Shown piece after piece: positions 8,691-34,462 of a DNA stretch of 64,000 nucleotides. The notes beneath the pieces were generated by a model, which did not search any database, was not told where the DNA came from, and saw nothing but the letters and a program-made list of their open reading frames with translations. Origin of the DNA: an uncultured Eubacteriales bacterium (lineage in GTDB: Bacteria > Acidobacteriota > Aminicenantia > Aminicenantales > Aminicenantaceae); NCBI GenBank assembly GCA_964645765.1, contig CAZYBE010000007.1, positions 2,644-66,643 of the forward strand, given 5' to 3'. Position 1 is the stretch's first letter. Every line of letters begins with the position of its first letter. The position numbers and the translations under genes are program-made.

Positions 8691-9556
8691 TGGACGATAT
8701 TCTCCCTATGAGATTGGTTTCTGAAGCTCGCCTTGATTTTAGACACAGCTTCTTGGATGGCTTCTGGAGGAGTCGAAGCCCCCCCTGACAGTCCTATTTT
8801 TTTTGCTCCTTCGAGCATTCGAGGAGTGATTTGCCCCGCGCTTTCGATGAAATATGTTTTGGGCAGGATCCTCTTTGAGATTTGGTAAAGCTTGTTGGTG
8901 TTGGAGCTCGACCTTCCGCCAACGATGAGCAAGGCGTCGACCTGAGATGCAAGCTCTGAAGTGGACTTTTGTCGAGTCTGGGTGGAGTGGCAGATGGTGT
9001 TGTAAACCCTCAATTGTTCTGTCTTCTCGATTAAAGCAGCAACAATTTTCTGGAAAAGATAGATGTCTTGAGTGGATTGAGCAAGCACGGCTCTTTTTTT
9101 TCGCTGAGGAAGGGAGCGTGCTTGTTCCTCGTTTTCAACGATGATTCCTTTTGTGCGGCTATATCCGATAAGTCCTTTAATCTCAGGGTGTTCTTTATTT
9201 CCGACGATGATGATTTCTGCTTTTTCCTTGGCCAGGCGCTCGACCAACCTCTGAATTTTTTTGACAATAGGACAGGTGGCATCGATGACTTCTATTTTTT
9301 TCTTGGCCAGGAGGCTATAGACCGCGGGCGAAACTCCATGGCTGCGGATGATGACCGTTCCTCGGCTGAGCTTTTCAAACTCGTCGATGGAATGAATTCC
9401 TTTTTTTTCCAGGTCGGCAATGATCTGAGGATTGTGGATCAGAGCTCCCAGGGTGAAAACTGCACCTTCTCTTTTTTCCCTTGTTTTCCTGACGATGTTC
9501 AAGGCTCTTCTAACTCCATAACAGAGACCAGAGTTTTTGGCGACTATGATTTCCAT
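8678..9556 (-). CDS. ispH: 4-hydroxy-3-methylbut-2-enyl diphosphate reductase
   Basis: 292 aa with N-terminal GLCYGVRRAL and the conserved Cys ligands of LytB/IspH. Overlaps the rpsA start. Confidence 0.9.
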   Translation of the reverse strand: MEIIVAKNSGLCYGVRRALNIVRKTREKREGAVFTLGALIHNPQIIADLEKKGIHSIDEFEKLSRGTVIIRSHGVSPAVYSLLAKKKIEVIDATCPIVKKIQRLVERLAKEKAEIIIVGNKEHPEIKGLIGYSRTKGIIVENEEQARSLPQRKKRAVLAQSTQDIYLFQKIVAALIEKTEQLRVYNTICHSTQTRQKSTSELASQVDALLIVGGRSSSNTNKLYQISKRILPKTYFIESAGQITPRMLEGAKKIGLSGGASTPPEAIQEAVSKIKASFRNQSHRENIVQCQR

Positions 9557-9684
9557 GTCTTTCAGGGTTGGATAATATTGATGAAATATACTATATTAGT
9601 CAAGCCTGTTTGTCAATCTTAACTATAGATAAAATCTTCACTTAGCTTCATTTCGGCGAGTTGAGAAGGGGAAGCCTTCTTCTC

Positions 9685-10233
9685 TTATTCTTCAAGGTCT
9701 GACTGCTCCTCCAAGATTTTCTTGATTTCTTCTGGAGAGGGGAGGTCGTCGAGTCTGTTAAGGCCAAAGTAGGCTAAGAATTTATCCGTCGTCCGGTAGA
9801 GGAGGGGGCTTCCAGGGCTTTTTTTCCTGCCCACGATTCTGATCAACTTTTTTTGGAGGAGAGTTTTCAGAGTGTGAGTAGAATCAACGCCTCTCAGAGC
9901 CGAGATTTCAGAAAGGGTTGTGGGCTGCTTGTAAGCGATGGCTGATAAAGTCTCGAGAGAGGCAGAAGAGAGTTTATTCTTTCTTTCCATCTTGAGAAGG
10001 CGCCTGACCCAGGGGTCATACTCTGGTTTTGTCGATAGAAGATAGCCCCCTGCTCGCTGGATGATTTGAATTCCATGGTCGTTTGAAGCATAGCTTTCTT
10101 GGAGCTCTTTGAAGGCCTGCTCGACCTCTTCCACAGGGAATTCTTGAAGGACCTCTTTCATCCTCTGCAAAGAGAGGGGTTCCTGGGAGATAAAGACCAA
10201 GGATTCAATGATTTCCTTAATCTTCGTGTCCAT
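9685..10233 (-). CDS. scpB: Segregation and condensation protein B
   Basis: 182 aa. ESLVFISQEPLSL and winged-helix repeats typical of ScpB. Lies immediately downstream of scpA. Confidence 0.85.
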   Translation of the reverse strand: MDTKIKEIIESLVFISQEPLSLQRMKEVLQEFPVEEVEQAFKELQESYASNDHGIQIIQRAGGYLLSTKPEYDPWVRRLLKMERKNKLSSASLETLSAIAYKQPTTLSEISALRGVDSTHTLKTLLQKKLIRIVGRKKSPGSPLLYRTTDKFLAYFGLNRLDDLPSPEEIKKILEEQSDLEE

Positions 10234-10973
10234 CAGTTGCTCTTGTAAGCCTTTTTTCTGAGCCAGACTTTAATCGGCTGAAAGTGGCTTTCCTGCGTGG
10301 CGATGATGATTCTTGATTTGATGAGCTCCAGGAGGCTGAAAAAAGCGATAAAGGCTTCTTCGAAGGATTCCTGCCGGTTAAAGTAGTCCAGAAAATCGAG
10401 ATAAGAATTCCTTTTTAATTCTTCGATGATTTCTCTCATCTTCTGTTCGAGAGAAATCTCCTCTCCTTTGATCGTCTTCGCTTCTTCCCTCTTCCTTTGC
10501 TTCATGAGCCTGAAAAAGGACTCTGCCAAATCGAAGAGGGAGACTTCGATGAAATCCATCTCATCGGTTTCAACGAGAGGAGGAAGAAAAGTTCTTCTCC
10601 ACATCTGAAGCTCTTCTTCCTCCTTCTCTTTCAGAAGGAGGCTGGCTGTTTTGATTTTTTGATAATCCACCAGGCGTTCTACGAGGAGTTGACGCAGGTC
10701 TTTTTCTTCCTCCAGGGTTTTCTCTCGGGGAAGAAGCATCTGAGATTTGATGTAGATGAGAAGCGCGGCGATGAGCAGGAATTCGGCTTCACGGTCGAGA
10801 TTCAACCTTTCTTTATGATTGAGGTATTCCAGATACTCTCTGGTGATGACGGCGATAGGGATATCATGGATATCGATTTTTCTTTTCTTGATCAGGAAGA
10901 GGAGAAGGTCAAGCGGGCCTTGAAAAGCTTCCAGCCTGACCTGGTAGGTTTCGGAAGCGTCCATAGTGTCCAA
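10233..10973 (-). CDS. scpA: Segregation and condensation protein A
   Basis: 246 aa. FQGPLDLLLFLIKKRKIDIHDIPIA N-terminal motif of ScpA kleisins. Confidence 0.85.
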   Translation of the reverse strand: MDTMDASETYQVRLEAFQGPLDLLLFLIKKRKIDIHDIPIAVITREYLEYLNHKERLNLDREAEFLLIAALLIYIKSQMLLPREKTLEEEKDLRQLLVERLVDYQKIKTASLLLKEKEEEELQMWRRTFLPPLVETDEMDFIEVSLFDLAESFFRLMKQRKREEAKTIKGEEISLEQKMREIIEELKRNSYLDFLDYFNRQESFEEAFIAFFSLLELIKSRIIIATQESHFQPIKVWLRKKAYKSN

Positions 10974-10981
10974 CTGGTCTT

Positions 10982-11974
10982 TTAAAAGCCGAGCCGAGCC
11001 CTGACTTCCTCCATCGTCTTTTGAGCTGCATCCCTTGCTCGCCTGTTTCCTTCTTCGAGGATATCCCAGACAAGCCGGGGGTTTTTCTTGAAGTTTTTCC
11101 TCTTTTCCCTGTAAGGAGAAAGGATTTCATCCAGCCTCTCGATGACGACATTCTTGCATTCCAAACAGCCAATGCCGGCTGTTCGGCACCCTTGAGCCAA
11201 TTCCTCTCTTTTTTCTTGAGTGACAAAAGCCTTATGCAGAGTAAAGGCTGGACAGTCTTCCGGCTCACCGGGGTCTGTCCTTCGTTTGCGCCTGATGTCG
11301 GTCATCATCGTTTCGATTTTTTGTCGCATGGTCTGCGGAGGATCCTGGAGGAAAATGGCGTTGCCGTAGGATTTACTCATCTTGCGACCGTCTATTCCAG
11401 CAAGCCTCGGAACTTCGCTGAGCAGAGTCTGAGGCTCAGGGAATGTCTTTCCGTAAAGCCGGTTGAAGCGCCTTGCCACTTCTCTGGTGAATTCGAGGTG
11501 ATAAACCTGGTCCTCTCCGACAGGGACGACATCTGCCTTGTAGATCAGGATATCAGCCGCTTGAAGCATGGGATAGCCGAGAAAGCCATAGGTATTGAGC
11601 TCTTTATCCGGGTTCTCCCGCTGCATCTCTTTGAAAGTCGGAACTCTTTCCAGCCAGGGAAGGGGAGTGACCATCGACAGAACGAGGTGCAGCTCAGCGT
11701 GCTCCTTGACCTCGGACTGAATGAAGAGAACAGATTTATTCGGGTCCAATCCGATGCTCATCCAATCCACGGCCAATTCGAGCGTGTATTCTTTGATGAC
11801 CTTCGAATTCTGGTATTCGGAGCTCAGGGCATGCCAAGTGACGATGGTATAAAAGCAGCGATATTCGTCTTGCATTTTAATCCAGTTGCGGAGCGGTCCG
11901 GCCAGATGGCCGAGATGGAGAGGGCCTGTCGGCCTCATCCCGCTGAGAACAACTTTTTTCTTTTTTCCCTTCAT
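10982..11974 (-). CDS. trpS: Tryptophan--tRNA ligase
   Basis: Class I aaRS HIGH (GPLHLGHL) and KMSKS motifs. Start taken at the internal ATG 11972-11974 (MKGKKKK), 1 nt after the upstream M50 protease stop. The track ORF extends to 12010. Confidence 0.9.
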   Translation of the reverse strand: MKGKKKKVVLSGMRPTGPLHLGHLAGPLRNWIKMQDEYRCFYTIVTWHALSSEYQNSKVIKEYTLELAVDWMSIGLDPNKSVLFIQSEVKEHAELHLVLSMVTPLPWLERVPTFKEMQRENPDKELNTYGFLGYPMLQAADILIYKADVVPVGEDQVYHLEFTREVARRFNRLYGKTFPEPQTLLSEVPRLAGIDGRKMSKSYGNAIFLQDPPQTMRQKIETMMTDIRRKRRTDPGEPEDCPAFTLHKAFVTQEKREELAQGCRTAGIGCLECKNVVIERLDEILSPYREKRKNFKKNPRLVWDILEEGNRRARDAAQKTMEEVRARLGF

Positions 11975-11975
11975 T

Positions 11976-12656
11976 TTAAATAAAGATAATGGTGTAAATG
12001 AGAAGCTCAATAGGCCTGATGATGATATTGAGAAGCCCGAGATAAATTAAAGCCAGGACAATGATAAAGCCGAAGGGACGGATCCTCTCATATTTTTGAG
12101 CAGCTTCGTCAGAGAGAAGACCCATCAGGACTCCGCTCCCATCCAGCGGCGGGATAGGAATGAGATTGAAGATTGCCAAGTAGGTATTGATCAATACGGC
12201 GTAGAAGAGGAGTAGAGTCAAGCCTTGAAGAGGATATAAGCCGCGGGGGAGAAAGCCATGGCCGAGGAGAAAAGACCCGAGAAAGGATTTGAGCTCAGGT
12301 TTCATAGTTTTGAAGAGGAGAATTCCAGCCAAAGCGATTGCAGCCGCAGCCAAGTTTGAGGCCGGGCCGGCTGCTGATATCCAGAGGTTGTCCCGCCGCG
12401 GATTTCTCAGGTTTATGGGGTTGACTGGAACTGGCTTAGCCCAGCCAAAAAGCGGAGCTTTGAGGATGAGGAGGATGAGGGGAAAGAGAATTGTGCCTAT
12501 TGGGTCGATGTGGGCTAATGGATTGAGTGAGACTCGGCCCAGATTGTAGGCTGTGGGGTCTCCCATTTTATGTGCTGCCCAGCCGTGAGAGGCTTCGTGG
12601 ATGGTTATGGCAAAGAGAAGGACGAAAACCGAGATGACAATCGAAACGATATTCAT
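11976..12656 (-). CDS. M50-family (site-2 protease-like) membrane metalloprotease
   Basis: 226 aa polytopic membrane protein with HEASHGWAAH (HExxH) in a transmembrane segment. Confidence 0.7.
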   Translation of the reverse strand: MNIVSIVISVFVLLFAITIHEASHGWAAHKMGDPTAYNLGRVSLNPLAHIDPIGTILFPLILLILKAPLFGWAKPVPVNPINLRNPRRDNLWISAAGPASNLAAAAIALAGILLFKTMKPELKSFLGSFLLGHGFLPRGLYPLQGLTLLLFYAVLINTYLAIFNLIPIPPLDGSGVLMGLLSDEAAQKYERIRPFGFIIVLALIYLGLLNIIIRPIELLIYTIIFI

Positions 12657-12704
12657 CTTAAACTAGAGCTATTTATAACATAAGAATGGCTTGGAGTAAA
12701 CTGT

Positions 12705-12925
12705 AAAAGCTGAATGGCTCTAAAACACGCCGCTTTTGCCCCAGCAAGCGAAGGCAGGGTGGTGAGAAAGCCGTGTGAAAGGCTGAGCGGGCATGGTTCC
12801 TCGACCGAAGGGAGAGGAGAGCGAAGCCTTGAACCGAGCCGCTTTTGCCTCGCCGGGGCAAAAGCGGCGTGCTTTCTCACCACCCTGCCTGAGCCATTCA
12901 AACGGTTTTCTCGCCATTCAGCTTT
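12705..12925. repeat. Structured intergenic repeat element, copy A (nested inverted repeats, MITE/REP-like)
   Basis: Terminal inverted repeat AAGCTGAATGGCTC / GAGCCATTCAGCTT. Inner arm CCGCTTTTGCC occurs three times (two direct, one inverted). The core GAAAGGCTGAGCGGGCATGGTTCCTCGACCGAAGGGAGAGGAGAGCGAAGCC is shared with the copies at 21.4, 26.4 and 53.0 kb. Confidence 0.6.
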
Positions 12926-12994
12926 TCCAGTTTATGAGATGAAAAAGGATTATGAAATTTTTTGCAAAAAAAGTTGCCTGTCCTCTTTTTTAGA

Positions 12995-14575
12995 TTAGCT
13001 TTTCAGGATTTTATCGACTTCTTCTCTATCGACTTCAGTTATGTAGGGAATACCGCTTATCTCTGCAGCATCCTTGGTCAAGGCAGCGATATCGTCGCGG
13101 CTGATGTAGCTCAGGTTGAACTTTCTGTTTCCAGCCATGAGCTGGCGCAAGCCTTGGCTGAGCCTCGAGAAATAGCTGAAGAGACCCATAGCACCGGTGG
13201 GTATTTCGCTGTACCTTTCTTGGTATTTCATCTTAAGTTCCGGCGCAGTGACAAAGATTTCTTCAGCCGTGCTGCCGAAGCGCTCGACATAGACCGGAAT
13301 CTGTCCTTCCTGGATTCTGCGGCCTATTGTTTTTCCGACCATGGTCGCTGCCAGAGGAGCTCTGGCCATTCCCACGGTTTTAAAATAAGGAGCTCCCAAG
13401 GCTAATGCTTTGTAAATTTGGTCTTCAAAAGTGATGCCGCCAGCGGCTGCTACATCCGGGATGTACTCTCCTTTTTCGTCGAGCCTGCGCAGGTATTGAT
13501 AGAGGAGGGACCAGATTTCGACGCTCGGAATTCCCCATTCGTTCATCATCCGCCAGGGGCTCATTCCTGTTCCGCCGCCAGCGCCGTCAACTGTTAAAAG
13601 GTCGATCTTGGCTTTTGAGGAGAATTTGACCGCCCTGGCCAAGTCCGCAGGCCTATAAGCTCCGGTCTTGAGGAAGACATATTTTGCACCTGCCTTTCTC
13701 AATTCCTCGACTCTTTTCATGAAGCCTTCCTCCTCGACCATTCCCAGCCTGGAGTGCCTCTCGAACTCCTTGAAGCTTCCCTTTTCAAAGGCCTGGATGA
13801 TACTCGGGTCATCAGGGTCGGGCAGGACAATATAGCCTCTTTTCTTCAATTCCTGGGCCTTCTTGAGGCTCTTGATCTTGACCTCTCCGCCGATGTCCTT
13901 GGCTCCTTGTCCCCATTTCAGCTCCACGGCTTCAACTCCCAATTTCTGGATGGCATACTCATGAACCCCAAGCCTTGTATCCTCGACATTGGCCTGGATG
14001 ACAACTGTTCCATAACGGTCTTCCTGGAAATCTTTGAAAAATTTGACCCTGGACTCCATGTCAGGAGAGCGGACGATCTTCCCATTCTTGATTTCAGATT
14101 CATCATCCATCCCGCAGACATTCTCTCCGATGGTGAGAATCGTCCCGGCTATGGCCGCTCCTTTGGCCAGGCCTTCCCAATTTTGCTTGGCCACGTTTGT
14201 TGAACCCATACCGCAAAGGATGAAGGGAACTTTTAGCTTAATTCCTTTGTCGTGTCCGACCGCGGTCTCGATGCTGACCTTAGGAAAGGTGGCTTTGTCG
14301 CTGTCGGCTTCAACGCCATAGGCTCCGACAGCCGTGCCCATGATGCTGAAGTGAGAAAGGTCCACAGGATACTCTTTCTCCGAGGCGGCGGTGATGATGC
14401 CAAAGGGCTGGGGATAGAGGACTTCGGGGCCGCGATAAGCAGATTTTCCTATTTCGCACATTCCGATGCAGCCGTCGACACAGGTCACGCACATTCCGCT
14501 GAAAGGACTGACCGAGCCTTCTGTTCTGTTCTTGGTCAAAGTGGCTGCGCTTCTGTTGAGTTTTGTATAAGCCAT
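12995..14575 (-). CDS. Glutamate synthase domain-2 (FMN-binding) family protein with N-terminal Cys cluster
   Basis: 526 aa. N-terminal CVTCVDGCIGMCEIG (Cx2Cx3Cx3C). Central GltB-like FMN barrel (DGAGGGTG, GIPSVE) matches the PF01645-type family. No amidotransferase or GXGXG domains. Confidence 0.75.
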   Translation of the reverse strand: MAYTKLNRSAATLTKNRTEGSVSPFSGMCVTCVDGCIGMCEIGKSAYRGPEVLYPQPFGIITAASEKEYPVDLSHFSIMGTAVGAYGVEADSDKATFPKVSIETAVGHDKGIKLKVPFILCGMGSTNVAKQNWEGLAKGAAIAGTILTIGENVCGMDDESEIKNGKIVRSPDMESRVKFFKDFQEDRYGTVVIQANVEDTRLGVHEYAIQKLGVEAVELKWGQGAKDIGGEVKIKSLKKAQELKKRGYIVLPDPDDPSIIQAFEKGSFKEFERHSRLGMVEEEGFMKRVEELRKAGAKYVFLKTGAYRPADLARAVKFSSKAKIDLLTVDGAGGGTGMSPWRMMNEWGIPSVEIWSLLYQYLRRLDEKGEYIPDVAAAGGITFEDQIYKALALGAPYFKTVGMARAPLAATMVGKTIGRRIQEGQIPVYVERFGSTAEEIFVTAPELKMKYQERYSEIPTGAMGLFSYFSRLSQGLRQLMAGNRKFNLSYISRDDIAALTKDAAEISGIPYITEVDREEVDKILKS

Positions 14576-14648
14576 AATGATTACCTCCTTGTTGTCAAAT
14601 TTATTTTATAAGCAGCGAAGAGCAATAAACTCAAAAATATTCTCATTT

Positions 14649-15368
14649 CTATTTGCTCGCTCTTGTCTGCTCCTTCTTTTCTGATTTTTCGCTCTTTTCT
14701 CGAACGCAAGTTCCGCAGCGGCCGACGTCATACATCCAGCACTGAAGCTCATCGTAATGGTCAAGGCAGGTTGGGTCCATGGTCAAACAGGCATTGCAGA
14801 CCGCTGTCTCTGCCTGAGGCCCCTGGCATCTCAACTGGCAAGCCGGACAGATGTACATACAGCCGCCGCAAAGCCGGCATTCCTCAGAGCGGATGTCGAA
14901 AGGAGTGGATATTTTTCTTCTATGGCCTCGCTTTTGAAAGCCAATCGCCCGGCCGTCCATCTGTTCCGCACACATCCGGACGCAGAGGCCGCAGAGGATG
15001 CATTCTTCGTTTCGAATCTTGAACCTGACCTGTTTGACTCCAAATTTAGAGGCTAGGTCTTGGATAATTTTTGAGTTTGGTGCGAGGGAAAGCATGAGCT
15101 CGATCATCATCTTTCGAGTTTCAATGACTCTGCGGGTATCGGTTCTGACCACGAGCCCTTCCTCCACAGGATAGGTGCAAGAAGAGACCAATTTGGACTT
15201 AGGTTCCTGACCTATCTCCACAAGACAAAGACGGCAGCCGCCAAAGCGGCTTAATCCTTCGTGGTAACAGAGGGTTGGTATTTCCATGCCGTAAAATCTA
15301 GCCGCATCTAAAATGGTTTGGCCTTTTTCTGCTTTAACTTCCAAGGCGTTTATATATAGTGTAATCAT
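14649..15368 (-). CDS. NuoG/HydA N-terminal-like Fe-S protein (2Fe-2S plus 4Fe-4S ferredoxin domains)
   Basis: Start taken at MITLYINALEV (ATG 15366-15368). Plant-type 2Fe-2S motif (CYHEGLSRFGGCRLCLVEI) followed by CILCGLCVRMC and CRLCGGCMYICP clusters. No molybdopterin or hydrogenase catalytic domain. Confidence 0.7.
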   Translation of the reverse strand: MITLYINALEVKAEKGQTILDAARFYGMEIPTLCYHEGLSRFGGCRLCLVEIGQEPKSKLVSSCTYPVEEGLVVRTDTRRVIETRKMMIELMLSLAPNSKIIQDLASKFGVKQVRFKIRNEECILCGLCVRMCAEQMDGRAIGFQKRGHRRKISTPFDIRSEECRLCGGCMYICPACQLRCQGPQAETAVCNACLTMDPTCLDHYDELQCWMYDVGRCGTCVREKSEKSEKKEQTRASK

Positions 15369-15375
15369 TTTTTCC

Positions 15376-17226
15376 TCACTCGATTTTAATCGCATCAAAG
15401 TTGCAAGCCTCACAGCAGGCTCCGCATTTAATGCATTTCACTGGATCGATAACATGGACTTTTTTTAATTCCCCAGAAATAGCTCCCTGGGGACAGACCT
15501 TCAGACAGGCTAAGCAGCCTGTGCATTTTTCTTCTATGATAGAGTATTGGATTAATTTTGTACAAACCCCTGCCGGACATTTTTTATCTTTTATGTGAGC
15601 TTCAAATTCATCCCTGAAGTACCGAATCGTGGAAAGGACTGGATTGGCAGCCGTTTGGCCCAGACCACACATGGAAGCATCCCTGGTGGCTTTAGCCAGA
15701 GCCATAAGGAACTCGAGGTCTCCTTCCTTTCCTCTTCCTTCTGAGATATCAGTGACCATTTCCCACATTCTTTGAGTCCCTTCCCGGCAGGAGAGACATT
15801 TGCCACAGGATTCATCTCTTAGAAAATTCAAGAAATATTTAGCCACGTCCACCATGCAGGTATTTTCATCCATAACGATCATCCCCCCAGACCCCATCAT
15901 CGAGCCAACTTCAGCCAGGCTCTCATAATCAATGGGCAGGTCAAGCTTTTCTTTAGGGATGCATCCGCCTGAGGGACCGCCGGTCTGAACAGCCTTGAAT
16001 TCTTTCCCCCCTGGGATTCCTCCGCCGATGTCAAAGATGATTTCTCTCAAGGTGATTCCCATTGGGACTTCCACCAGCCCTGTGTTATTGATTTTTCCGA
16101 CGAGTGAAAATATTTTGGTTCCCTTGCTTTTCTCTGTGCCTATTCTTGAGAACCAATCAGCCCCCCGGTTTATGATCGCAGGAGCATTAGCCCAAGTCTC
16201 GACATTATTAATATTCGTCGGCTTCCCCCAAAGTCCCTCTTGGGCGGGATAGGGAGGCCTCTGTTTGGGGATTCCAATTTTTCCTTCGATACAAGCCAAT
16301 AACGCTGATTCTTCGCCCGAGACAAACGCTCCAGCTCCTTTTGAGATTGAAATATCGAAGCTGAAGTCAGTGCCAAGTATATTTTTTCCGAGTAAGTTAT
16401 ATTCTCTGGCTTGGTCAAGAGCAATGGTGATATTTTCGACGGCAAGCGGATATTCTGCACGGACATAAATAATTCCTTCTTTTGCGCCTATGGCATAGGC
16501 TCCGATGAGCATACCTTCGATGACGCTATGGGGATTTCCCTCCAATAAACTTCTATCCATATAAGCACCTGGGTCACCTTCATCACAATTACAGACGATA
16601 TATTTTTTATCTCCCTTGGCTTTGCTTGTAAATTCCCATTTATATCCAGTGGGAAAACCTGCTCCACCTCGTCCTCTTAATCCAGATTTTTTGATTTCCT
16701 CTAAAACTCCATGGGGGGTCATGGTTTGCAGGGCTTTAGCGATGGCTGAATAGCCATTCACAGCTATGTAATCTTTGATTTCAGTGGGGTCGACGAAACC
16801 ATTGTTTCCAAAAATGATTCGTTTTTGTTCTTTATAGAAAGGGACTTCCTTTTCATACACAATCTTTTCTTCAGTTTGGGGATGAACATAAAGAAGGCGA
16901 TCAATAATTTTTTTCTCTTTAATTGTTTTTGAAATAACTTCTTTAATATCTTTAAGTTGAATTCGCTGGTAGAAAATTCCTTCAGGCTGGATGACGATGA
17001 TCGGCCCTCTTTCACAGAACCCATGACAGCCCGTCGTTCGAACTTCGGCGACATCCTGAAGATTTTGATTTTTAATTTCATCCTTGAAAGCCTGGGCAAC
17101 TTTTTGACATCCATATGCATGACAACCTGTTCCACTGCAGATGGTAATGATGGATTTCCCATTTTTGCGGGATTTTAGAATATCTTTTCTTAGCTCGTCT
17201 AATTTTTTGATATTCATACTTCCCAT
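15376..17226 (-). CDS. NuoF-like NADH-binding flavoprotein subunit (HydB/HndC architecture)
   Basis: 616 aa. N-terminal thioredoxin-like 2Fe-2S domain (CSGTGCHAYGC ... CHGFCERGP). 51-kDa core (GRGGAGFPTGYKWEF, SCGKCLSCREGT). Two C-terminal 4Fe-4S ferredoxin motifs. Confidence 0.85.
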   Translation of the reverse strand: MGSMNIKKLDELRKDILKSRKNGKSIITICSGTGCHAYGCQKVAQAFKDEIKNQNLQDVAEVRTTGCHGFCERGPIIVIQPEGIFYQRIQLKDIKEVISKTIKEKKIIDRLLYVHPQTEEKIVYEKEVPFYKEQKRIIFGNNGFVDPTEIKDYIAVNGYSAIAKALQTMTPHGVLEEIKKSGLRGRGGAGFPTGYKWEFTSKAKGDKKYIVCNCDEGDPGAYMDRSLLEGNPHSVIEGMLIGAYAIGAKEGIIYVRAEYPLAVENITIALDQAREYNLLGKNILGTDFSFDISISKGAGAFVSGEESALLACIEGKIGIPKQRPPYPAQEGLWGKPTNINNVETWANAPAIINRGADWFSRIGTEKSKGTKIFSLVGKINNTGLVEVPMGITLREIIFDIGGGIPGGKEFKAVQTGGPSGGCIPKEKLDLPIDYESLAEVGSMMGSGGMIVMDENTCMVDVAKYFLNFLRDESCGKCLSCREGTQRMWEMVTDISEGRGKEGDLEFLMALAKATRDASMCGLGQTAANPVLSTIRYFRDEFEAHIKDKKCPAGVCTKLIQYSIIEEKCTGCLACLKVCPQGAISGELKKVHVIDPVKCIKCGACCEACNFDAIKIE

Positions 17227-17708
17227 TATTCAGCTTTACTCCTTTTCTCAGGCCTGAATTTTTTAATGAGCTTGTCAACTTTTCTGATTTTCATTTGGCC
17301 GTAATAATCCCCATCGATGACAGCGATGGGTCCCAGAGCGCAGGCCCCTAAACAGTTGACGGTTTCTAATGTAAACAGGTTATCTTTCGTTGTTTCTCCG
17401 ACCTTTATGTTGAGCCTTCTTTTAAACTCTTCTAAGACCAGCGGAGCTCCTCTGACGTGACAAGCCGTGCCCATGCAAATGGTAATCAGATGCTTTCCCC
17501 GAGCGGTGAGGCTGAAAATATTATAGAAGGTGGCGATGCTTATCACATCCATCAGAGGAACTTCTAAAGCTTCTGATACCTTTATCAAAGCATTTTGAGG
17601 AAGATAATTAAATTTAGCCTGAATGTCTTGAAGGATGGGCATTAAGTATTTCTTTTCTTGGGGATGCTTTTTTATTATTGTATCGAATTCAGCGACTTCG
17701 GGTTGCAT
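17226..17708 (-). CDS. NuoE-like 24-kDa thioredoxin-like 2Fe-2S subunit
   Basis: 160 aa. CMGTACHVRG ... CLGACALGP motif. Confidence 0.85.
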   Translation of the reverse strand: MQPEVAEFDTIIKKHPQEKKYLMPILQDIQAKFNYLPQNALIKVSEALEVPLMDVISIATFYNIFSLTARGKHLITICMGTACHVRGAPLVLEEFKRRLNIKVGETTKDNLFTLETVNCLGACALGPIAVIDGDYYGQMKIRKVDKLIKKFRPEKRSKAE

Positions 17709-17972
17709 GAGTCTTCTCCAAATTTGATATTGTCTAAATTAAGGATTCTTTTGAATTGAGGGGAAGATTGATAATTGAATTATGAAATTTATAATTCCTC
17801 CTCTTAACTTTTAATATAAATAATATAAAAAATAAAAATTATTAACACTTTTTTATAACAGATATTCATTATTCTTGTCAAGAATTCGTGTTATTTAAAG
17901 TTGAAAAGTGTTATTTATGTTATTTAAAGTTGAATTCGAGGACGAATTCGAGGACGAGGACAAAAAGAATTC

Positions 17973-18485: not shown

Positions 18486-18762
18486 GATTCCAGAGAATAT
18501 TTCAAAATTCCCGGCTTCCTCCCTTCAGCTCTCTCTGTTAAGTTTCTTTACAATTTACGACTCATCATAATCCAACCTTGAATAAAATTCTGAGGGAATT
18601 CCCCAAAACAGGACGTTCATCTTTTGATTCAAATGGCATAAAAATTGCTATTTTTAGTCGAGGGCCAAAGATGAAGCTTATGGAAGGATGGGAGAAATCG
18701 AAACTTAGATTTCCTATTTTTTTAATAGATTTTCTTAAATTTGATATAATAAAAATAGAACA

Positions 18763-21372
18763 ATGAAAAAAAGATTCATCATTCAAGCCTTTGCTTTTTT
18801 GCTCCTTTTCCTTCTCTTAGCCTTTGAAGCTCGCTCGCAGGAAGATGCTGCGACCGGGCTGGTCGCTCAGATGCAAAAGTCCTTGAACGAGAGAGACATT
18901 CCGGCTTACCTGGAGAATTTCGAAGAGGAGCTCAGGGCCAAAGAGGAGGCAAGCATAAAAAGCAGGTTCGATCAATTCCTGATGGACAGCGTGACTTTGT
19001 ACAAAGCCGGGAAGCTGAGCCAGACCGCAGATGAAACAAAAATATTTCTTCAGGCTCTGTTTCAGAACTCTTTTTCAGTGATTATTGAAAACTGGCGGCT
19101 GAGCCTCATCGAGGTGGATGGACGATGGATGGTCAGCAAAAAGGACATCGTCGGGAGCGTCTCCACCCTTTATAAAATCAAAATCCCCTCTGAAAGGGCT
19201 GAAAGAGTCATGTCGATTGAAATCGAGCACGTGGATATGAAGCTCGTCTTTAAAGATGCCCTCGTCTTTTTTGACAACATTCCTGAGCTGGAAACAGCCT
19301 TGCTCGTCGTCGGTAAAGGTCATGTAACTTTTACTCCTTCAGACCCCGAAGAAAGACACCAGCTTGACCTCATCTATAAAAAAAGCTCTCTTGACGATGA
19401 GCTCTCCTGTGCCTATCTCAGGTTCTCCAGCTATTTTTTTCAGAATAACATCAGGATTGAAAAAGGCAAGGATGACCGCCAGGTTTCTGATTTAGAAAAA
19501 AACAACGCCTATTCTCTTTTTTCCAGGCATTATCCCAATTCCTTCACTATCGAACATTCCCTCAACAAGGAGCTGTATTCGACCTTGCCTCAAGGAGAAG
19601 AGGCTGCCATTGATTTTAATGGAAAGAAGTATGGGAACCTGACCTATATCTATACCCCTTTTTCAGATGAGGAGGTCCATCTTTATCGCTGGAAAGATGA
19701 GAAGATCATCAGCCTCTATTCGCCTTTCGTCGAAGACAAAAAGAAGAGAATGGTTGTGACTTTTGGCGAGATGTTCAATGTCACGAATTATAAAATTGAT
19801 GTTGATTTTAATCCCACGCAGTCTTTTCTTTCTGGAAAAGCAGAAGTTGAGATCAAGCCTAAGGTGGACTCCCTGGAAAGAGTCAAGCTTAAATTGAACT
19901 CCAAATTCGAAATTCTTCGTATCTATGACCAGGAGATGAATGAGCTTTTTTACAGCCGGGATAAATTGAGAGAGCTTCTTTATATTTACTTCATCAACCC
20001 TCCTTCTCGAGAGAGGCCTTGCACGATTGAGATTTTTTATCGAGGGAAAATTTCGCTTCCCGCGCAGGTTGAAGATTCCGTCAACCCCTATCAAGAGCAA
20101 CGCGAATCCCTTGTCTTCATTCCTCCAAAGTTTGACAGTTATCTCTTCACTCGACGCTCCTACTGGTATCCTTCTCCTTCAGATGATGATTATTTTACGG
20201 CAAGGTTGAGAATCATTGTTCCACCCGGATACAGCTGTGTTTCTAATGGTGATTTGATTGAGCAGGGCAAATTGGATAGAGCGGAGAGAGTCGAGGAAGT
20301 GGACAAAGTGGGGAGCTCTGTTTATATCTTCGAGACAAAATATCCTCTGAAATATCTCTCTTTTATTGTCGGAGACATCACCAAAGTCAAAGAAGATTCA
20401 GGCTCTCTCCCGCTCCAACTCTACTCCTCCTCTGAAATCTATTTTCAAAAGAGGGGCCTTGTCGAGGACGCCAAAAGGATTATTCAATTCTATGAAAGCA
20501 AGTTTGGGCCTTTTCCGTATGAGAAGTTGGGAATTGTCCAGAGAAATTGGTCTTCTAGCGGAGGGCACTCCTCCCCTTCCTTTATCGTTCTCAACGAGCT
20601 GCCCCAAGTCGCAGAAGGAGGGCATTATGTCAGTGTCCGGAGCCCCGTCGACCTCTCCCGCTGGAAAGAATATTTCATCGCTCACGAAATCGCCCACCAG
20701 TGGTGGGGGCAAGCTGTCACCTGGAAAACCTATCATGACCAATGGCTGAGCGAGGGATTGGCTCAATTTGCCGCGGCTCTCTATTTGAGAGAAAGCCATG
20801 GCCAGGACGCTTATTCCATTATCCTCAAGAGGTTCTCTCTATGGACGGAAAAATATTCAAAATGGGGTCCCATCAGCCTGGGCTCTCGCCTCAGCCTTTT
20901 TAATTTCAATGCTTACCAGTCCATCATTTATAACAAAGCTTCTCTGGTGTTAAATCTGCTTAAAGATTTTCTGGGCGAGGAAGTTTTCTTTGGGGGATTA
21001 AGAGAATTTTTTGAAAAATACAAATATAACACAGCCGGCACCCGAGATTTTCAGAGAATCATGGAAAATGTTTCAGGAAAAGACCTGACAATTTTCTTCA
21101 AGCATTGGTTTTCGTCCTATCTTCTTCCGGAACTCAAAGTTGCCCATTCTGTGAAAAAGGAAAAGGATGGATTGGTCCTGGAAGTCAGAGTGACCCAGCT
21201 CAGGGAGCAATTTGTTTTTCCGCTGTGGATAGAGTGGATGGAGAAGGGAGAGAAAGTCAGGAAAGTGCTCATTGTTGATGACAAGACTAAGGTTTTTGAG
21301 TTTAGGTTAGGGGAAAAACCGCAGAAGATAAGAGTGAATCCTGATAAAGCCCTGCCAGGAAAATTGTTATAG
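18763..21372 (+). CDS. Secreted M1-family zinc aminopeptidase (aminopeptidase N-like)
   Basis: 869 aa with a signal peptide. HEIAHQWWG ... WLSEGLAQF zinc-binding HExxH-x18-E signature. Confidence 0.8.
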   Translation: MKKRFIIQAFAFLLLFLLLAFEARSQEDAATGLVAQMQKSLNERDIPAYLENFEEELRAKEEASIKSRFDQFLMDSVTLYKAGKLSQTADETKIFLQALFQNSFSVIIENWRLSLIEVDGRWMVSKKDIVGSVSTLYKIKIPSERAERVMSIEIEHVDMKLVFKDALVFFDNIPELETALLVVGKGHVTFTPSDPEERHQLDLIYKKSSLDDELSCAYLRFSSYFFQNNIRIEKGKDDRQVSDLEKNNAYSLFSRHYPNSFTIEHSLNKELYSTLPQGEEAAIDFNGKKYGNLTYIYTPFSDEEVHLYRWKDEKIISLYSPFVEDKKKRMVVTFGEMFNVTNYKIDVDFNPTQSFLSGKAEVEIKPKVDSLERVKLKLNSKFEILRIYDQEMNELFYSRDKLRELLYIYFINPPSRERPCTIEIFYRGKISLPAQVEDSVNPYQEQRESLVFIPPKFDSYLFTRRSYWYPSPSDDDYFTARLRIIVPPGYSCVSNGDLIEQGKLDRAERVEEVDKVGSSVYIFETKYPLKYLSFIVGDITKVKEDSGSLPLQLYSSSEIYFQKRGLVEDAKRIIQFYESKFGPFPYEKLGIVQRNWSSSGGHSSPSFIVLNELPQVAEGGHYVSVRSPVDLSRWKEYFIAHEIAHQWWGQAVTWKTYHDQWLSEGLAQFAAALYLRESHGQDAYSIILKRFSLWTEKYSKWGPISLGSRLSLFNFNAYQSIIYNKASLVLNLLKDFLGEEVFFGGLREFFEKYKYNTAGTRDFQRIMENVSGKDLTIFFKHWFSSYLLPELKVAHSVKKEKDGLVLEVRVTQLREQFVFPLWIEWMEKGEKVRKVLIVDDKTKVFEFRLGEKPQKIRVNPDKALPGKLL

Positions 21373-21704: not shown

Positions 21705-23090
21705 TCAGGAGAGATTGGTGATATCGATATGCAGCCTTTTAATCATCTCATTCAGGGTGGTGGGCTTGACTCCCAAGAGGCTGGCAGCCTTTTTCTGAAC
21801 TCCTTTTGACTTGGCCAAGGCACTGATGATGGCTTTTTTCTGGAGGGATTGAATGTGTTCCCTGAGAGTGTGCTCGTTATCGGCCTGGGAGAATATTTTT
21901 TTCTCATCTTGAGAGGATAAGAGGAAAGGGGGAAGACTCTCTCTGCTGATGATTTTGGACTTGGTCAGGACAACGGCTCTCTCAATCAGGTTTTCCAATT
22001 CTCTGATGTTTCCCGGCCAGTTGTAGTTGATGAAAATTTCCATCACGTCTTCGGTGACACCAGTGATTTCTTTTTTGTTTTCTTTTCCGTAGATCGTGAG
22101 AAAATGTCTGACAAGAAGGGGAATATCCTCTTTTTTTTCCCGGAGCGGCGGGAGCACGATTTTTATGACATTCAGTCGGTAGAAAAGGTCTTGGCGGAAT
22201 CTCTTCTGTCCGATCAGCTCTTCCAGGTCGGCGTTGGTGGCAGCGATGACTCTAGCGTCGACTTTGATCGTTTTTGTCCCTCCCAATCTCATGAACTCTT
22301 TTCCCTGCATCACCCGCAGCAACTTCGCCTGGGTCTCTGGATTGAGGGAGGATATTTCATCAAAAAAGATTGTTCCTCTGTCAGCTGCCTCGAAGAGGCC
22401 CTGTTTATGACTGACAGCTCCGGTGAAGGCTCCTTTGACATGGCCGAAGAGGTGACTTTCCAGAAGGTCCGGCGGAAGGGAGCCGCTGTTGACGATGATG
22501 AAGGGGAATGCGGCCCGGTCGCTGTTTTGGTGGAGGGCTCTTGAAACGAGTTCCTTTCCTGTCCCGCTTTCGCCTTCGAGCAAAATGGTGCTTCGAGTCG
22601 GGGCAACGGCTTTTATCACCTCGAAGACGTCCTGCATGACTTTGCTTTTTCCGATGATATTTTCAAAGCTGAACTTCCTTTTGAGCTCGTCTTTCAAGCG
22701 GAGGTTTTCTTCCTGGAGTTTTTTATGCTCCAATGCTCTTTTGACCGTCAAGAGCAGCTCATCATGCTTGAAAGGCTTCTGGACGTAATCAAAGGCTCCG
22801 CTCTTCATCGCTGAAATGGCTGATTCCACGGAGGCGTAGGCGGTGATGATGATGATGGCGGCCTGGGGGTCAGCCTTCCTCAGATTTTTAAGGACTTCTA
22901 TTCCATCCAGTCCAGGCATGAGCAGGTCCAGAAGAACGAGGTCAAAAGGCTGGGAAGCGTGCTTTTCAAGAGCCACTTCGCCGCTCAGGGATTTTTCAAC
23001 TTCATAGCCTTCAGAGGTTAAGAGCTCTCCCAGAACTTCATGGATGATTTGCTCGTCATCGATGATGTGGATTTTCTCTTTTTTTTCCAT
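21705..23090 (-). CDS. Sigma-54-dependent response regulator (NtrC/PilR-like)
   Basis: 461 aa. Receiver domain, AAA+ sigma-54 interaction domain (GESGTGKE, GAFTGA) and C-terminal Fis-type HTH. Confidence 0.85.
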   Translation of the reverse strand: MEKKEKIHIIDDEQIIHEVLGELLTSEGYEVEKSLSGEVALEKHASQPFDLVLLDLLMPGLDGIEVLKNLRKADPQAAIIIITAYASVESAISAMKSGAFDYVQKPFKHDELLLTVKRALEHKKLQEENLRLKDELKRKFSFENIIGKSKVMQDVFEVIKAVAPTRSTILLEGESGTGKELVSRALHQNSDRAAFPFIIVNSGSLPPDLLESHLFGHVKGAFTGAVSHKQGLFEAADRGTIFFDEISSLNPETQAKLLRVMQGKEFMRLGGTKTIKVDARVIAATNADLEELIGQKRFRQDLFYRLNVIKIVLPPLREKKEDIPLLVRHFLTIYGKENKKEITGVTEDVMEIFINYNWPGNIRELENLIERAVVLTKSKIISRESLPPFLLSSQDEKKIFSQADNEHTLREHIQSLQKKAIISALAKSKGVQKKAASLLGVKPTTLNEMIKRLHIDITNLS

Positions 23091-26341: not shown

Positions 26342-26586
26342 GGAAAACCGCGTTATGGCTCAGGCTGGGTGTTTCGAAAACACGCAGGCTTTGCATCACC
26401 AAGCTAAGGCAGAGTGGCGAGGAAGCCGTGTGAAAGGCGGAGCGGGCACGGTTCCTCGACCGAAGGGAGAGGAGAGCGAAGCCTTGAACCGAGTCGCTTT
26501 TGCCTCGCTGGGGCAAAAGCGGCGTGCCTTCGAATCACTCTGCCGGAGCCATTCAAACGGTTTTCTTAAACACCCAGCCTGAGCCT
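26342..26586. repeat. Structured intergenic repeat element, copy C
   Basis: Termini GGCTCAGGCTGGGTGTTT / AAACACCCAGCCTGAGCC and GAAAACCG / CGGTTTTC. Same core and CCGCTTTTGCC arm hairpin as copies A, B and D. Confidence 0.6.
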
Positions 26587-34422: not shown

Positions 34423-34462
34423 ATTGACTTCACCCTGGCGTTCGACTAAAATCTAACCCGCT

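Follow-up and report, generated by a model that had tools for sequence, protein, structure and literature searches.

A conserved four-gene cluster encoding a bifurcating-type NADH/ferredoxin module with a glutamate synthase-like flavoprotein as its putative catalytic subunit

We have identified four adjacent minus-strand genes that encode an electron-splitting NADH/ferredoxin module of the hydrogenase type (BfuABC) together with a distant relative of the glutamate synthase flavin domain, and we propose that the products form a single soluble complex that may link NADH, ferredoxin and glutamate/2-oxoglutarate chemistry. The gene set is conserved in hundreds of anaerobic species and its order holds in at least 15 bacterial and archaeal phyla, yet we found no description of it in the literature that we searched. 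The genes lie in a 64-kb stretch of DNA (hereafter the window), and their coordinates and those of flanking features are collected in Table 1. A preliminary description of the locus had proposed a Bfu/HydABC-type NuoEF plus ferredoxin module whose catalytic partner is a stand-alone GltS-like FMN protein acting on an unknown substrate, and our analysis supports this interpretation with the corrections given below.

Table 1. Positions of the four genes and of neighbouring features in the window
Positions	Strand	Feature	Description
17226..17708	-	bfuC-like gene	160 aa; NuoE/HydC/HoxE-type thioredoxin-like [2Fe-2S] subunit
15376..17226	-	bfuB-like gene	616 aa; HydB-type NADH/FMN subunit with N-terminal [2Fe-2S], NuoF core with [4Fe-4S] and C-terminal 2x[4Fe-4S]
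14649..15368	-	bfuA-like gene	239 aa; minimal BfuA with [2Fe-2S] (A1), two [4Fe-4S] (A2, A4) and a Cys-rich C-terminal domain
12995..14575	-	gene for GltS-like FMN protein (GLTS)	526 aa; GltS-like FMN (beta/alpha)8 iron-sulfur flavoprotein, putative catalytic subunit; conserved QGAK, GGTGMSP and GG..ED..KALALGA motifs
17852..17955	-	putative promoter region	TTGACA (17881-17876), 18-nt spacer, TATAAA (17857-17852), preceded by two 22-nt direct repeats and 2x GAATTCGAGGAC
12697..12934		nested inverted-repeat element	about 240 nt, just downstream of the operon; possible terminator or mobile palindromic element

All four open reading frames were confirmed. BfuC matched PF01257 (2Fe-2S_thioredx) with an E value of 9e-50, and its best NCBIfam matches were HoxE/NuoE models (E 1e-40), although these fell below their curated cut-offs. 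In BfuB we detected an N-terminal 2Fe-2S_thioredx domain, Complex1_51K, a weak sub-threshold SLBB match, NADH_4Fe-4S and a C-terminal dicluster with two Cx2Cx2Cx3C motifs. BfuA contains Fer2_4 plus one 4Fe-4S dicluster domain (Fer4_7), but no NADH-G_4Fe-4S_3 (His-ligated cluster) and no catalytic domain; the length given in Table 1 assumes translation from an ATG preceded by a GAGG ribosome-binding site, and the 254-aa reading frame that begins at a GTG is an over-extension. Twelve cluster cysteines of BfuA are 100% conserved in 64 orthologues, and eight further cysteines at its C-terminus (positions 178-222 in the numbering of the conservation analysis, 177-221 in the 239-aa protein) are 88-100% conserved. 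With regard to the preliminary description of the four genes as translationally tight, this holds for the first three, where there is a 1-nt overlap between the bfuC stop and the bfuB start at 17226 and a 7-nt spacer between bfuB and bfuA; the fourth gene follows a 73-nt spacer and has its own AAGGAGG.

BfuB aligned end to end with the bifurcating HydB of Acetomicrobium mobile (7t2r_B, E 1.4e-253, residues 27-613), including the N-terminal 2Fe-2S, the HIKDKKCPAGVC region and both C-terminal 4Fe-4S motifs, and it also matched HydB of the A. woodii and T. kivui enzymes and of T. maritima, as well as NfnB. The best solved relative of BfuA was WorA (9mqx_A, 247 aa, E 1.2e-34), the minimal A subunit that plugs a separate catalytic module into BfuBC in the tungsten aldehyde oxidoreductase Bfu complex (PMC12318220). 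All of the domains that define BfuB, BfuC and BfuA (PMC9304861) are present, and the architecture is that of the 'type 2' Bfu layout, in which a WorA-like minimal BfuA is combined with a separate catalytic subunit, rather than one in which the HydA catalytic domain has been replaced (PMC9304861; PMC12318220).

The 526-aa protein scored 71.6 bits against PF01645 (Glu_synthase; cut-off 20.4), but the best stretch covered only profile positions 185-308 of 369, and the sequence is too diverged to hit solved GltS. An AF2 model (pLDDT 81.6) predicts an FMN TIM barrel. The N-terminal CVTCVDGCIGMC motif (C29-x2-C32-x3-C36-x3-C40) is invariant in 76 orthologues, whereas the Cx5Cx4C 3Fe-4S site of GltS is absent, and there is no GATase or GXGXG domain. 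The protein is a member of a divergent sister family and not, as the preliminary description implied, a cut-out GltB domain. More distant paralogues (31-55% identity) are stand-alone genes without Bfu genes.

The linkage of this protein to the Bfu genes is strongly conserved. We examined 80 species-level loci encoding orthologues (68-93% identity) from Aminicenantes, Zixibacteria, Ignavibacteria, Planctomycetota, Dehalococcoidia, Bacteroidetes, Latescibacterota, Acetothermia, Bacillota, Desulfobacterota-type lineages, Thermoplasmata and Altiarchaeales, and found that the order BfuC-BfuB-BfuA-GLTS was almost always kept: BfuA lay less than 400 nt upstream in 75/76 loci, BfuB in 61/62 and BfuC in 54/56. 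Notably, between close relatives BfuA (83%) and GLTS (93%) stay conserved while BfuBC is swapped (69% and 57%; short versus long BfuB), which fits a BfuA-GLTS unit with exchangeable input modules.

Given these data, we consider it very likely that the four proteins, including the FMN protein, make up one Bfu-type complex, although assembly of the FMN protein with BfuA is inferred from synteny only, in the absence of biochemical data. In the form found in the window, the proposed electron path is as follows: (i) BfuB binds NADH at its FMN and ferredoxin at its C-terminal 2x[4Fe-4S] domain; (ii) BfuC supplies the mobile [2Fe-2S] cluster; (iii) the minimal BfuA wires the BfuBC core through its A1, A2 and A4 clusters to the fourth subunit and (iv) the GltS-like FMN barrel takes electrons through its own N-terminal Cys4 iron-sulfur cluster and passes them to FMN. 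That the complex bifurcates, rather than transferring electrons linearly, is in our view more likely than not, but like the direction of the reaction this is an inference. In the long form of the operon seen in relatives, the ferredoxin-binding domain of BfuB is replaced, so the coupling partners may differ between forms.

As for the third reaction, we favor, tentatively, a reversible reductive amination of 2-oxoglutarate with free ammonia, that is, glutamate synthase chemistry without the glutaminase. The overall reaction would be 2 NADH + Fd(ox) + 2-oxoglutarate + NH4+ <-> 2 NAD+ + Fd(red) + glutamate. With an acceptor couple at about -130 mV and ferredoxin at about -500 mV, values that would straddle NADH at -320 mV, the coupled reaction should be close to equilibrium, and it could either conserve the energy of glutamate synthesis as reduced ferredoxin or use reduced ferredoxin to pull glutamate oxidation. 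The substrate itself is somewhat less certain than an even chance, and the reading as a whole is about evenly balanced.

Our reasoning for this substrate is that, in addition to PF01645 membership, the QGAK, GGTG.SP and GG..D..KA.ALGA motifs are conserved, and K226, R246 and E151, which we aligned by hand to the catalytic Lys/Arg/Glu of GltS, are at least 95% invariant. Consistent with this idea, we found that: (i) glutamate dehydrogenase (GDH) is the commonest metabolic neighbour, occurring in 16/80 loci, with 8 downstream plus 7 upstream within two genes; (ii) glutamine synthetase occurs in 6 loci and NrpR in 4, with PII next to NrpR in one locus; (iii) sigma-54 NtrC-type regulators occur in 20 loci, and a -24/-12 element lies in the intergenic region in 11/15 cases, against 7% of background windows and (iv) 37 of 61 loci carry a GltD-like Fer4_20 + Pyr_redox_2 domain fused to BfuB. 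Interestingly, an independent 38%-identical family member (P0230) is fused to an F420-type FrhB module and sits beside two GDH genes, which echoes the putative F420-dependent glutamate synthases of methanogens (PMC3448663, PMC3087415). However, only 23/80 loci have GDH, GlnA or NrpR within 10 kb, and the window itself has none. In addition, the GltS 3Fe-4S cysteines are missing, the lack of an amidotransferase means that the protein cannot be a glutamine-dependent GOGAT, an ammonia-dependent reaction would duplicate the adjacent GDH, and the GDH, NrpR and PII neighbours would equally fit another 2-oxoglutarate reaction.

We cannot rule out that the same four-subunit complex acts on a different third substrate, although we regard this as the less likely alternative. 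Candidates are the interconversion of a 2-oxo acid and a 2-hydroxy acid (2-oxoglutarate/2-hydroxyglutarate, pyruvate/lactate, glyoxylate/glycolate) or the reduction of another C=N or C=C bond. The predicted fold is as close or closer to FMN alpha-hydroxy-acid oxidases/dehydrogenases and IDI-2 than to GltS, the 2-oxoglutarate-centred neighbours would also fit 2-oxoglutarate/2-hydroxyglutarate, and the pyruvate/lactate couple, at roughly -190 mV, would fit NADH/ferredoxin bifurcation equally well, as in the Ldh-EtfAB system. On the other hand, the sequence motifs (QGAK, GGTG.SP) and the only above-threshold Pfam family are GltS-type; IMPDH is below its cut-off and FMN_dh does not appear among the families reported. 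Furthermore, the glutamine synthetase, NrpR and PII neighbours and the fused GltD-like domains point to nitrogen assimilation, and no 2-hydroxyglutarate-pathway genes were seen among the commonest neighbour families.

It is also possible, but unlikely, that the complex is a linear NADH-dependent reductase in which electrons run from BfuB through BfuA to the FMN protein and ferredoxin plays no part, the extra clusters being vestigial or storage sites. Reduction of an acceptor at about -130 mV by NADH would need no coupling, and the 37/61 loci in which the C-terminal ferredoxin-type domain of BfuB is replaced by a GltD-like NAD(P)H module indicate that ferredoxin is dispensable in at least that form. 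Nevertheless, BfuB of the window keeps every cluster motif that separates bifurcating BfuB from non-bifurcating NuoF/HoxF homologues (PMC9304861), it is nearest to proven bifurcating enzymes and far above NuoF (E 1e-253 versus 1e-117), and these features are kept under strong conservation across phyla.

An ordinary split, archaeal-type, glutamine-dependent glutamate synthase, with its amidotransferase (domain 1) and GXGXG (domain 3) subunits encoded elsewhere and NuoEF-like proteins merely replacing GltD, is very unlikely. There is precedent for proposing split GltS with separate subunits and alternative electron-input subunits in methanogens (PMC3448663, PMC3087415), and the protein does belong to PF01645. 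However, although whole genomes were not searched, no amidotransferase, central or GXGXG homologue is encoded in the 64-kb window or within 10 kb in any of the 80 loci, and none is listed among the 25 commonest families in each table of neighbour Pfam counts. The absence of the 3Fe-4S site and the low, partial PF01645 score further indicate that the protein is not an orthologue of GltS domain 2. Least likely of all is that the FMN protein is only a co-transcribed neighbour of a BfuABC that serves as a free-standing NADH:ferredoxin oxidoreductase or has another partner, since, even though the stand-alone paralogues show that the fold can work with a soluble donor, adjacency holds in 75/76 loci across bacteria and archaea, BfuA and GLTS are co-conserved even where BfuBC is exchanged, and a minimal BfuA with no catalytic domain has no function without a partner (PMC12318220).

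Among characterized systems, WorABCSL (Acetomicrobium mobile / Eubacterium limosum; PDB 9mqx) has a BfuBC core, with 9mqx_B also a top match to BfuB, plus a minimal BfuA of about 245 aa that has A1, A2 and A4 clusters and a Cys-rich C-terminus, lacks A3/A5 and the HydA-type C-terminal domain, and serves a catalytic site on a separate subunit. In the present case the catalytic module is a single FMN/Fe-S TIM-barrel protein and not WorSL (tungstopterin plus polyferredoxin), the C-terminus of BfuA has 8 conserved Cys where WorA has a 4-Cys zinc finger plus an adaptor helix, and the expected substrate potential is high, not very low. The NiFe-HydABCSL and FeFe-HydABC electron-bifurcating hydrogenases (PDB 7t2r, 7q4v, 8a6t, 7p5h) have close homologues of BfuB and BfuC with the same cofactor motifs and the same C-B-A gene order, but here there is no H-cluster or NiFe subunits, BfuA is truncated and the third substrate is not H2. 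NfnABC / Stn (Nfn-Bfu transhydrogenase; PDB 9n5u) combines a Bfu core with a GltD/NfnB-like FAD + 2x[4Fe-4S] module of the kind present in the long-BfuB form of this operon; in Nfn-Bfu, however, the GltD-like domain is fused to BfuA and is itself the third-substrate site, whereas in relatives of the present operon, but not in the window, it is fused to the C-terminus of BfuB in place of the ferredoxin domain and an extra FMN protein is present.

Bacterial NADPH- and ferredoxin-dependent glutamate synthases (GltBD; PDB 1ea0, 1ofd, 6s6s) share with the 526-aa protein an FMN (beta/alpha)8 'synthase' barrel of PF01645 with QGAK and GGTG.SP motifs, and electrons enter through an iron-sulfur cluster from a GltD-type or ferredoxin donor, but the Cx5Cx4C site is replaced here by the N-terminal Cx2Cx3Cx3C and the amidotransferase, central and GXGXG domains are lacking. 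The putative methanogen enzyme FGltS likewise has a GltS-type synthase unit served by a non-canonical electron-input module; it was proposed to be glutamine-dependent with separate GltS subunits (PMC3448663, PMC3087415), whereas the P0230 locus (where the relative is fused to Fer4 + FrhB), like this one, shows no amidotransferase or GXGXG gene. Ldh-EtfAB and Bcd-EtfAB belong to an unrelated protein family (Etf versus Bfu) but would follow the same thermodynamic logic, NADH electrons being split reversibly between a high-potential organic acceptor and ferredoxin.

The putative promoter upstream of bfuC was read directly from the sequence and its function is inferred only; the hexamer pair was not listed by a consensus scan whose rule requires T at position 6 of the second hexamer. 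The element downstream of the operon consists of nested inverted repeats with a predicted RNA fold of -123 kcal/mol (z -8.9); it matched no Rfam family, and a related element lies at 26357-26585.

The four consecutive minus-strand ORFs and the other features to which we refer are listed in the table below. The second gene starts on the last base of the stop codon of the first, and the third starts 7 nt after the stop of the second, behind a GAGG; the GTG ORF of the third gene listed from 15413 is an over-extension. The fourth gene follows a 73-nt spacer with an AAGGAGG. Downstream of the operon are genes for an M50 peptidase, TrpRS, ScpA, ScpB and LytB, while upstream lie a divergent AdoMet decarboxylase gene, an M1 peptidase, a sigma-54 activator and a GAF-PAS histidine kinase. 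Nothing in the 64 kb resembles GltS domains 1 or 3, GltD, GDH or GlnA, and the closest database proteins (83-98% identity) come from Candidatus Aminicenantes MAGs. The preliminary description, which had reported a tight set of NuoE-like, NuoF-like and ferredoxin genes followed by a stand-alone glutamate-synthase FMN domain with an N-terminal Cys cluster, is therefore confirmed with small corrections.

Coordinates of the operon and of other features in the window and in related loci (positions in L-numbered loci are those of the locus)
Sequence	Position	Strand	Feature
Window	17226-17708	-	Gene 1, bfuC-like, 160 aa
Window	15376-17226	-	Gene 2, bfuB-like, 616 aa
Window	from 15368 (ATG)	-	Gene 3, bfuA-like, 239 aa
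Window	12995-14575	-	Gene 4, GltS-like FMN protein, 526 aa
Window	12697-12934		Nested inverted-repeat element
Window	26357-26585		Nested inverted-repeat element
Window	12653-12901		82-aa ORF inside the first inverted-repeat element, probably spurious
Window	17884-17955		Direct repeats and tandem repeat, possible regulator binding sites
Window	18634-18649	+	Sigma-54-type -24/-12 motif
Window	18763-21372	+	M1-family peptidase gene, 869 aa
Window	21705-23090	-	Sigma-54 NtrC-type activator gene
Window	23093-25975	-	GAF-PAS histidine kinase gene, 960 aa
Window	26935-46446		Type IV pilus / type II secretion cluster
L090	8001-10403		P0230, Fer4 + FrhB/FdhB fused to a GLTS-like domain, 800 aa
L090	4355-7585		Neighbours of P0230
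L056	7537-9969		810-aa ORF covering both BfuB and BfuA
L074	about 8284-11859		Two GLTS-like genes in tandem

The electron-input module satisfies every feature that we could test of the BfuABC (HydABC-type) electron-bifurcating family as defined by Schut et al. 2022 (PMC9304861). The product of the first gene is a NuoE/HydC/HoxE-type thioredoxin-like [2Fe-2S] protein, i.e. a BfuC (PF01257, E 9e-50), although its best NCBIfam matches, which are HoxE/NuoE models, all fall below their curated cut-offs. The 616-aa BfuB has an N-terminal thioredoxin-like 2Fe-2S domain (E 1.2e-9), the NuoF FMN/NADH core (PF01512, E 7.5e-46), the NuoF 4Fe-4S region (PF10589, E 1.4e-31) and a C-terminal dicluster ferredoxin domain with two Cx2Cx2Cx3C motifs (Fer4, E 9.5e-9); the SLBB domain was detected only weakly (E 9.6e-5, 22.6 bits, below its cut-off of 27). 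BfuB aligns over its full length with the solved HydB of the A. mobile NiFe-HydABCSL enzyme (7t2r_B; E 1.4e-253, 846 bits, residues 27-613) and next best with HydB of the A. woodii, T. kivui and T. maritima enzymes and with NfnB, whereas non-bifurcating NuoF proteins align only with the core, at about E 1e-117. The N-terminal 2Fe-2S cysteines, the HIKDKKCPAGVC segment and both C-terminal 4Fe-4S motifs are in place in these alignments, the segment and the two C-terminal motifs aligning with those of 7t2r_B, 7q4v_B and 8a6t_B. Notably, these are the features (an N-terminal [2Fe-2S], the B2 Cys/His site and a C-terminal 2x[4Fe-4S]) that Schut et al. use to separate bifurcating BfuB from non-bifurcating NuoF/HoxF homologues.

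BfuA has a plant-type 2Fe-2S domain (Fer2_4, E 2.5e-18) and one 4Fe-4S dicluster domain (Fer4_7, E 2e-7), but lacks any catalytic domain. It also lacks the His-ligated cluster of NuoG/HydA: there is no PF10588 hit, and the segment ELMLSLAPNSK has no His or Cys where HydA/NuoG bind the cluster. Its closest solved match is WorA (9mqx_A, 247 aa, E 1.2e-34), the minimal BfuA of the tungsten aldehyde oxidoreductase complex, which keeps clusters A1, A2 and A4, lacks A3 and the HydA-type C-terminal domain, and uses a Cys-rich C-terminus to dock a separate catalytic module (PMC12318220). In 64 orthologues of the window's BfuA the 12 cluster cysteines are invariant and 8 further C-terminal cysteines are 88-100% conserved. 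The module is thus a 'type 2' Bfu in the published classification, that is, BfuABC plus an extra catalytic subunit. A hydrogenase reading was rejected as BfuA has no H-cluster or NiFe partner.

The 526-aa protein belongs to the PF01645 (Glu_synthase) superfamily but is far from canonical glutamate synthase. It scores 71.6 bits against a cut-off of 20.4, yet the best stretch covers only profile positions 185-308 of 369, and membership is therefore at superfamily level only. Neither a phmmer search with the sequence nor an hmmsearch with a 16-member family profile hit any solved GltS in the PDB (only chance or designed TIM barrels were returned), and the E. coli GltB FMN domain gave no tblastn hit against any related locus. 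An AlphaFold model (pLDDT 81.6; the N-terminal 35 residues with the Cys motif are unmodelled, as expected without the cluster) is an FMN (beta/alpha)8 barrel, for which Foldseek gave similar E-values (about 1e-10) to flavocytochrome b2, lactate/glycolate oxidases and Synechocystis GltS. With regard to FMN-dependent alpha-hydroxy-acid oxidases/dehydrogenases (PF01070), however, the requirement for a significant FMN_dh profile match and the catalytic His-x-x-Arg motif was not fulfilled.

Profile-to-sequence alignment of the FMN protein with E. coli GltB covers only the C-terminal half, where DGAGGGTGMSP aligns to GYDGGTGASP and AAGGITFEDQIYKALALGAP aligns to VDGGLKTGVDIIKAAILGAE. In the same alignment the segment of the GltS 3Fe-4S motif (C-x5-C-x4-C), ALGCKYLRICHLNNC, aligns to MVGKTIGRRIQ, which has no Cys. 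For the half not covered, we aligned ELKWGQGAKDIGGE...AQELKKR with GltB IKVAQGAKPGEGGQ...IAKLR, and IGENV with SGEGGE, by hand. This would place K226, R246 and E151, all at least 95% conserved in 76 orthologues, at the positions of what are probably the GltS catalytic Lys, Arg and Glu, but this step is an inference resting on manual motif alignment only. The protein begins with CVTCVDGCIGMC, a Cx2Cx3Cx3C motif. These four N-terminal cysteines (C29, C32, C36 and C40) are the only conserved ones; they are 100% conserved in orthologues and nearly so in distant paralogues. The family therefore has its own iron-sulfur entry site.

The operon is present in at least 592 species-level genomes. The best 80 have 68-93% identity to the window protein and come from Aminicenantes, Zixibacteria, Ignavibacteria/Melioribacteraceae, Bacteroidetes, Planctomycetota/Phycisphaerae, Latescibacterota, Acetothermia, Dehalococcoidia, Bacillota (including Dethiobacter), Syntrophorhabdus, Syntrophaceae and other Desulfobacterota-type lineages, Riflebacteria, Thermoplasmata, 'Methanobacteriota' and Altiarchaeales. 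The FMN protein is about 70% identical between bacterial and archaeal phyla, which suggests a core metabolic role. When tblastn with the window's proteins was restricted to loci with enough upstream DNA, BfuA was found on the same strand less than 400 nt upstream of the FMN gene in 75/76 loci, BfuB within 4.5 kb upstream in 61/62 and BfuC upstream in 54/56, and the gene order C-B-A-GLTS (GLTS being the FMN-protein gene) is the same everywhere. More distant family members (31-55% identity) were checked for the same context and are stand-alone genes without any Bfu gene; the linkage is therefore specific to the orthologous clade at 68% identity or more. The single ORF in L056 (a Riflebacteria locus) is either a fusion or an assembly artefact, L074 with its two GLTS-like genes is from Altiarchaeales, and L018 (Dethiobacter) has a second GLTS-like copy flanked by IclR-type regulator genes and a further NuoF-like gene.

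BfuB occurs in two forms, a short HydB-type form of about 616-700 aa in 24 loci, as in the window, and a long form of about 1050 aa in 37 loci. In the long form the C-terminal ferredoxin domain is replaced by a GltD/NfnB-like Fer4_20 + Pyr_redox_2 module; E. coli GltD hits 46 loci. Interestingly, close relatives within Aminicenantes differ in the BfuBC module. Between the window and its close relative L001, the FMN protein (93%) and BfuA (83%) are conserved, but BfuB (69%, long form with a fused GltD-like domain) and BfuC (57%) are not, and another Aminicenantes locus, L014, has long and short BfuC-BfuB sets and two BfuA genes in tandem before one FMN-protein gene. This suggests a unit of BfuA and the FMN protein with exchangeable BfuBC input modules.

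Genomic context offers clues to the substrate, as the neighbours point to 2-oxoglutarate, ammonia and glutamate: (i) glutamate dehydrogenase is the commonest metabolic neighbour, being found in 16/80 loci and the top enzyme family both downstream (8) and upstream (7); (ii) glutamine synthetase occurs in 6 loci, directly upstream of the operon in three Aminicenantes relatives; (iii) the 2-oxoglutarate-sensing regulator NrpR occurs in 4 loci, with PII next to NrpR in one of the related loci, L046; and (iv) twenty loci have a sigma-54 NtrC-type response regulator upstream, 15 of them with a histidine kinase. In total, however, only 23/80 loci have GDH, GlnA or NrpR within 10 kb. An independent relative gives the same hint. 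P0230 (38% identity) is fused to a Fer4 + FrhB (F420-reactive) module and lies directly after two GDH genes and a small ferredoxin, with PylC/PylD-like genes also nearby and again without GATase or GXGXG genes. FrhB-type subunits were earlier proposed to feed a putative, never purified, F420-dependent glutamate synthase in methanogens (PMC3448663, PMC3087415).

A strict scan for sigma-54 promoters (TGGYAY-N5-TTGCW) found almost nothing near BfuC, but a relaxed scan restricted to the regulator-to-BfuC intergenic regions found a good -24/-12 element in 11 of 15 loci, against 7% of random windows. The regulator is often followed by a conserved small Cys-rich ORF of about 90-150 aa with no Pfam family, which sits just upstream of BfuC (in L024, L036, L039, L047, L058, L062, L070, L072 and L079) and usually downstream of the predicted promoter; in the same loci BfuC is about 280-340 aa long, with a C-terminal Cys-rich (zinc-ribbon-like) extension. 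The window's own operon shows a sigma-70-like promoter instead, and upstream of this putative promoter are two 22-nt direct repeats (ATT[CT][GA]TGTTATTTAAAGTTGAA, 29 nt apart) and a tandem 2x12-nt GAATTCGAGGAC. The window does carry a sigma-54-type motif (TGGCATAAAAATTGCT), but about 130 nt upstream of the M1-family peptidase gene; the homologues of the activator and histidine kinase next to that gene form the regulator pair that, in other phyla, sits directly upstream of the Bfu-GLTS operon.

Given these findings, we favor a model in which the four proteins form one complex, and we consider this likely. NADH would bind at the BfuB FMN and ferredoxin at the C-terminal clusters of BfuB, and the FMN-B1-B5-C1 site would split electron pairs, one branch running through the A1, A2 and A4 clusters of BfuA (and perhaps its Cys-rich C-terminus) to the N-terminal Cys4 cluster and FMN of the fourth subunit. 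That the complex bifurcates appears somewhat more probable than not. At the fourth subunit 2-oxoglutarate + NH3 (as 2-iminoglutarate) would be reduced to glutamate, although this choice of substrate is inferred and we give it slightly less than even weight. If the 2-oxoglutarate + NH4+/glutamate couple lies near -130 mV, NADH at -320 mV and ferredoxin near -500 mV, the reaction 2 NADH + Fd(ox) + 2-oxoglutarate + NH4+ = 2 NAD+ + Fd(red) + glutamate is close to equilibrium. The enzyme could then store the roughly 35 kJ/mol of reductive amination as reduced ferredoxin or, in peptide fermenters such as Aminicenantes, could instead use reduced ferredoxin to pull the otherwise unfavourable NAD-dependent oxidation of glutamate, which would be analogous to Ldh-EtfAB for lactate. 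In the long form the GltD-like module may bring NADPH into play instead of ferredoxin.

Of the alternatives, the same complex acting on another 2-oxo/2-hydroxy acid or C=N substrate is supported by the fold similarity of the modelled FMN protein to alpha-hydroxy-acid oxidases. It is also possible that the complex is a linear NADH-dependent reductase. A glutamine-dependent split GOGAT is unlikely: E. coli GltB domain 1 gave no tblastn hit in the window or in the 80 loci with 10-kb flanks, central-domain and GXGXG homologues were likewise not found there, and the 25 commonest Pfam families for the two genes on either side include no such family, although missing subunits encoded elsewhere in these genomes cannot be excluded. 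The system lacks three of five structural features of glutamate synthase (the amidotransferase, the GXGXG and central domains, and the 3Fe-4S site), at least within these regions, and should therefore not be filed as a GOGAT, although it may work like the synthase half of one. Mere co-transcription of the FMN gene with the Bfu genes is the least likely alternative.

Bfu enzymes are a recently defined and mechanistically unresolved class of electron-bifurcating complexes for which the known third substrates are H2, formate, NADPH and aldehydes, and others such as pyruvate, CO, F420, peroxide and quinones have been predicted. The family survey (PMC9304861) lists hydrogenase, formate dehydrogenase, Nfn, F420, Wor, Bam, Por, Codh, Rub, Mbh and Nuo partners and leaves 17 BfuB clades unassigned, and neither its text nor its supplement mentions glutamate synthase. 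Full-text searches, which were confined to open-access papers, likewise found no description of a Bfu + GltS-like operon, nor does a GltS-like flavoprotein partner appear in the later structural papers that we could search. What appears to be new is therefore a Bfu complex with a new class of catalytic subunit, whose substrate is still inferred. We would tentatively raise the further possibility that this is a widespread, previously unrecognised enzyme, an ammonia-dependent, electron-bifurcating glutamate synthase/dehydrogenase ('Glt-Bfu') that couples NADH oxidation to simultaneous reduction of ferredoxin and 2-oxoglutarate + NH3, or runs in reverse. Anaerobes in more than 15 phyla, including archaea, would then have an energy-conserving link between central nitrogen assimilation or amino-acid catabolism and the ferredoxin pool. 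In the Bfu family the acceptor would lie on the high-potential side of NADH, so the complex would behave as a canonical-style NADH bifurcator and could be compared in mechanism with the known enzymes. As it stands, these genes are named NuoE/NuoF/'hydrogenase'/'FMN-binding glutamate synthase family protein' and may be misread as a hydrogenase or as complex I fragments.

The two nested inverted-repeat elements, each of about 230-240 nt, lie in intergenic DNA, the first of them downstream of the operon. This first element has a 20-nt perfect arm pair plus outer and inner arms (RNA fold -123 kcal/mol, z -8.9), and the second has 18-nt perfect arms; they share GGCTCAGGCNGGGTG. There is no Rfam match, and they may be a MITE/REP-like palindromic element or a large terminator. 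The type IV pilus / type II secretion cluster encodes a PilC-like T2SSF, a PilB-like ATPase and a secretin with a cohesin domain, and it includes two paralogous proteins of about 1200 aa with FG-GAP repeats and a PilY1 beta-propeller.
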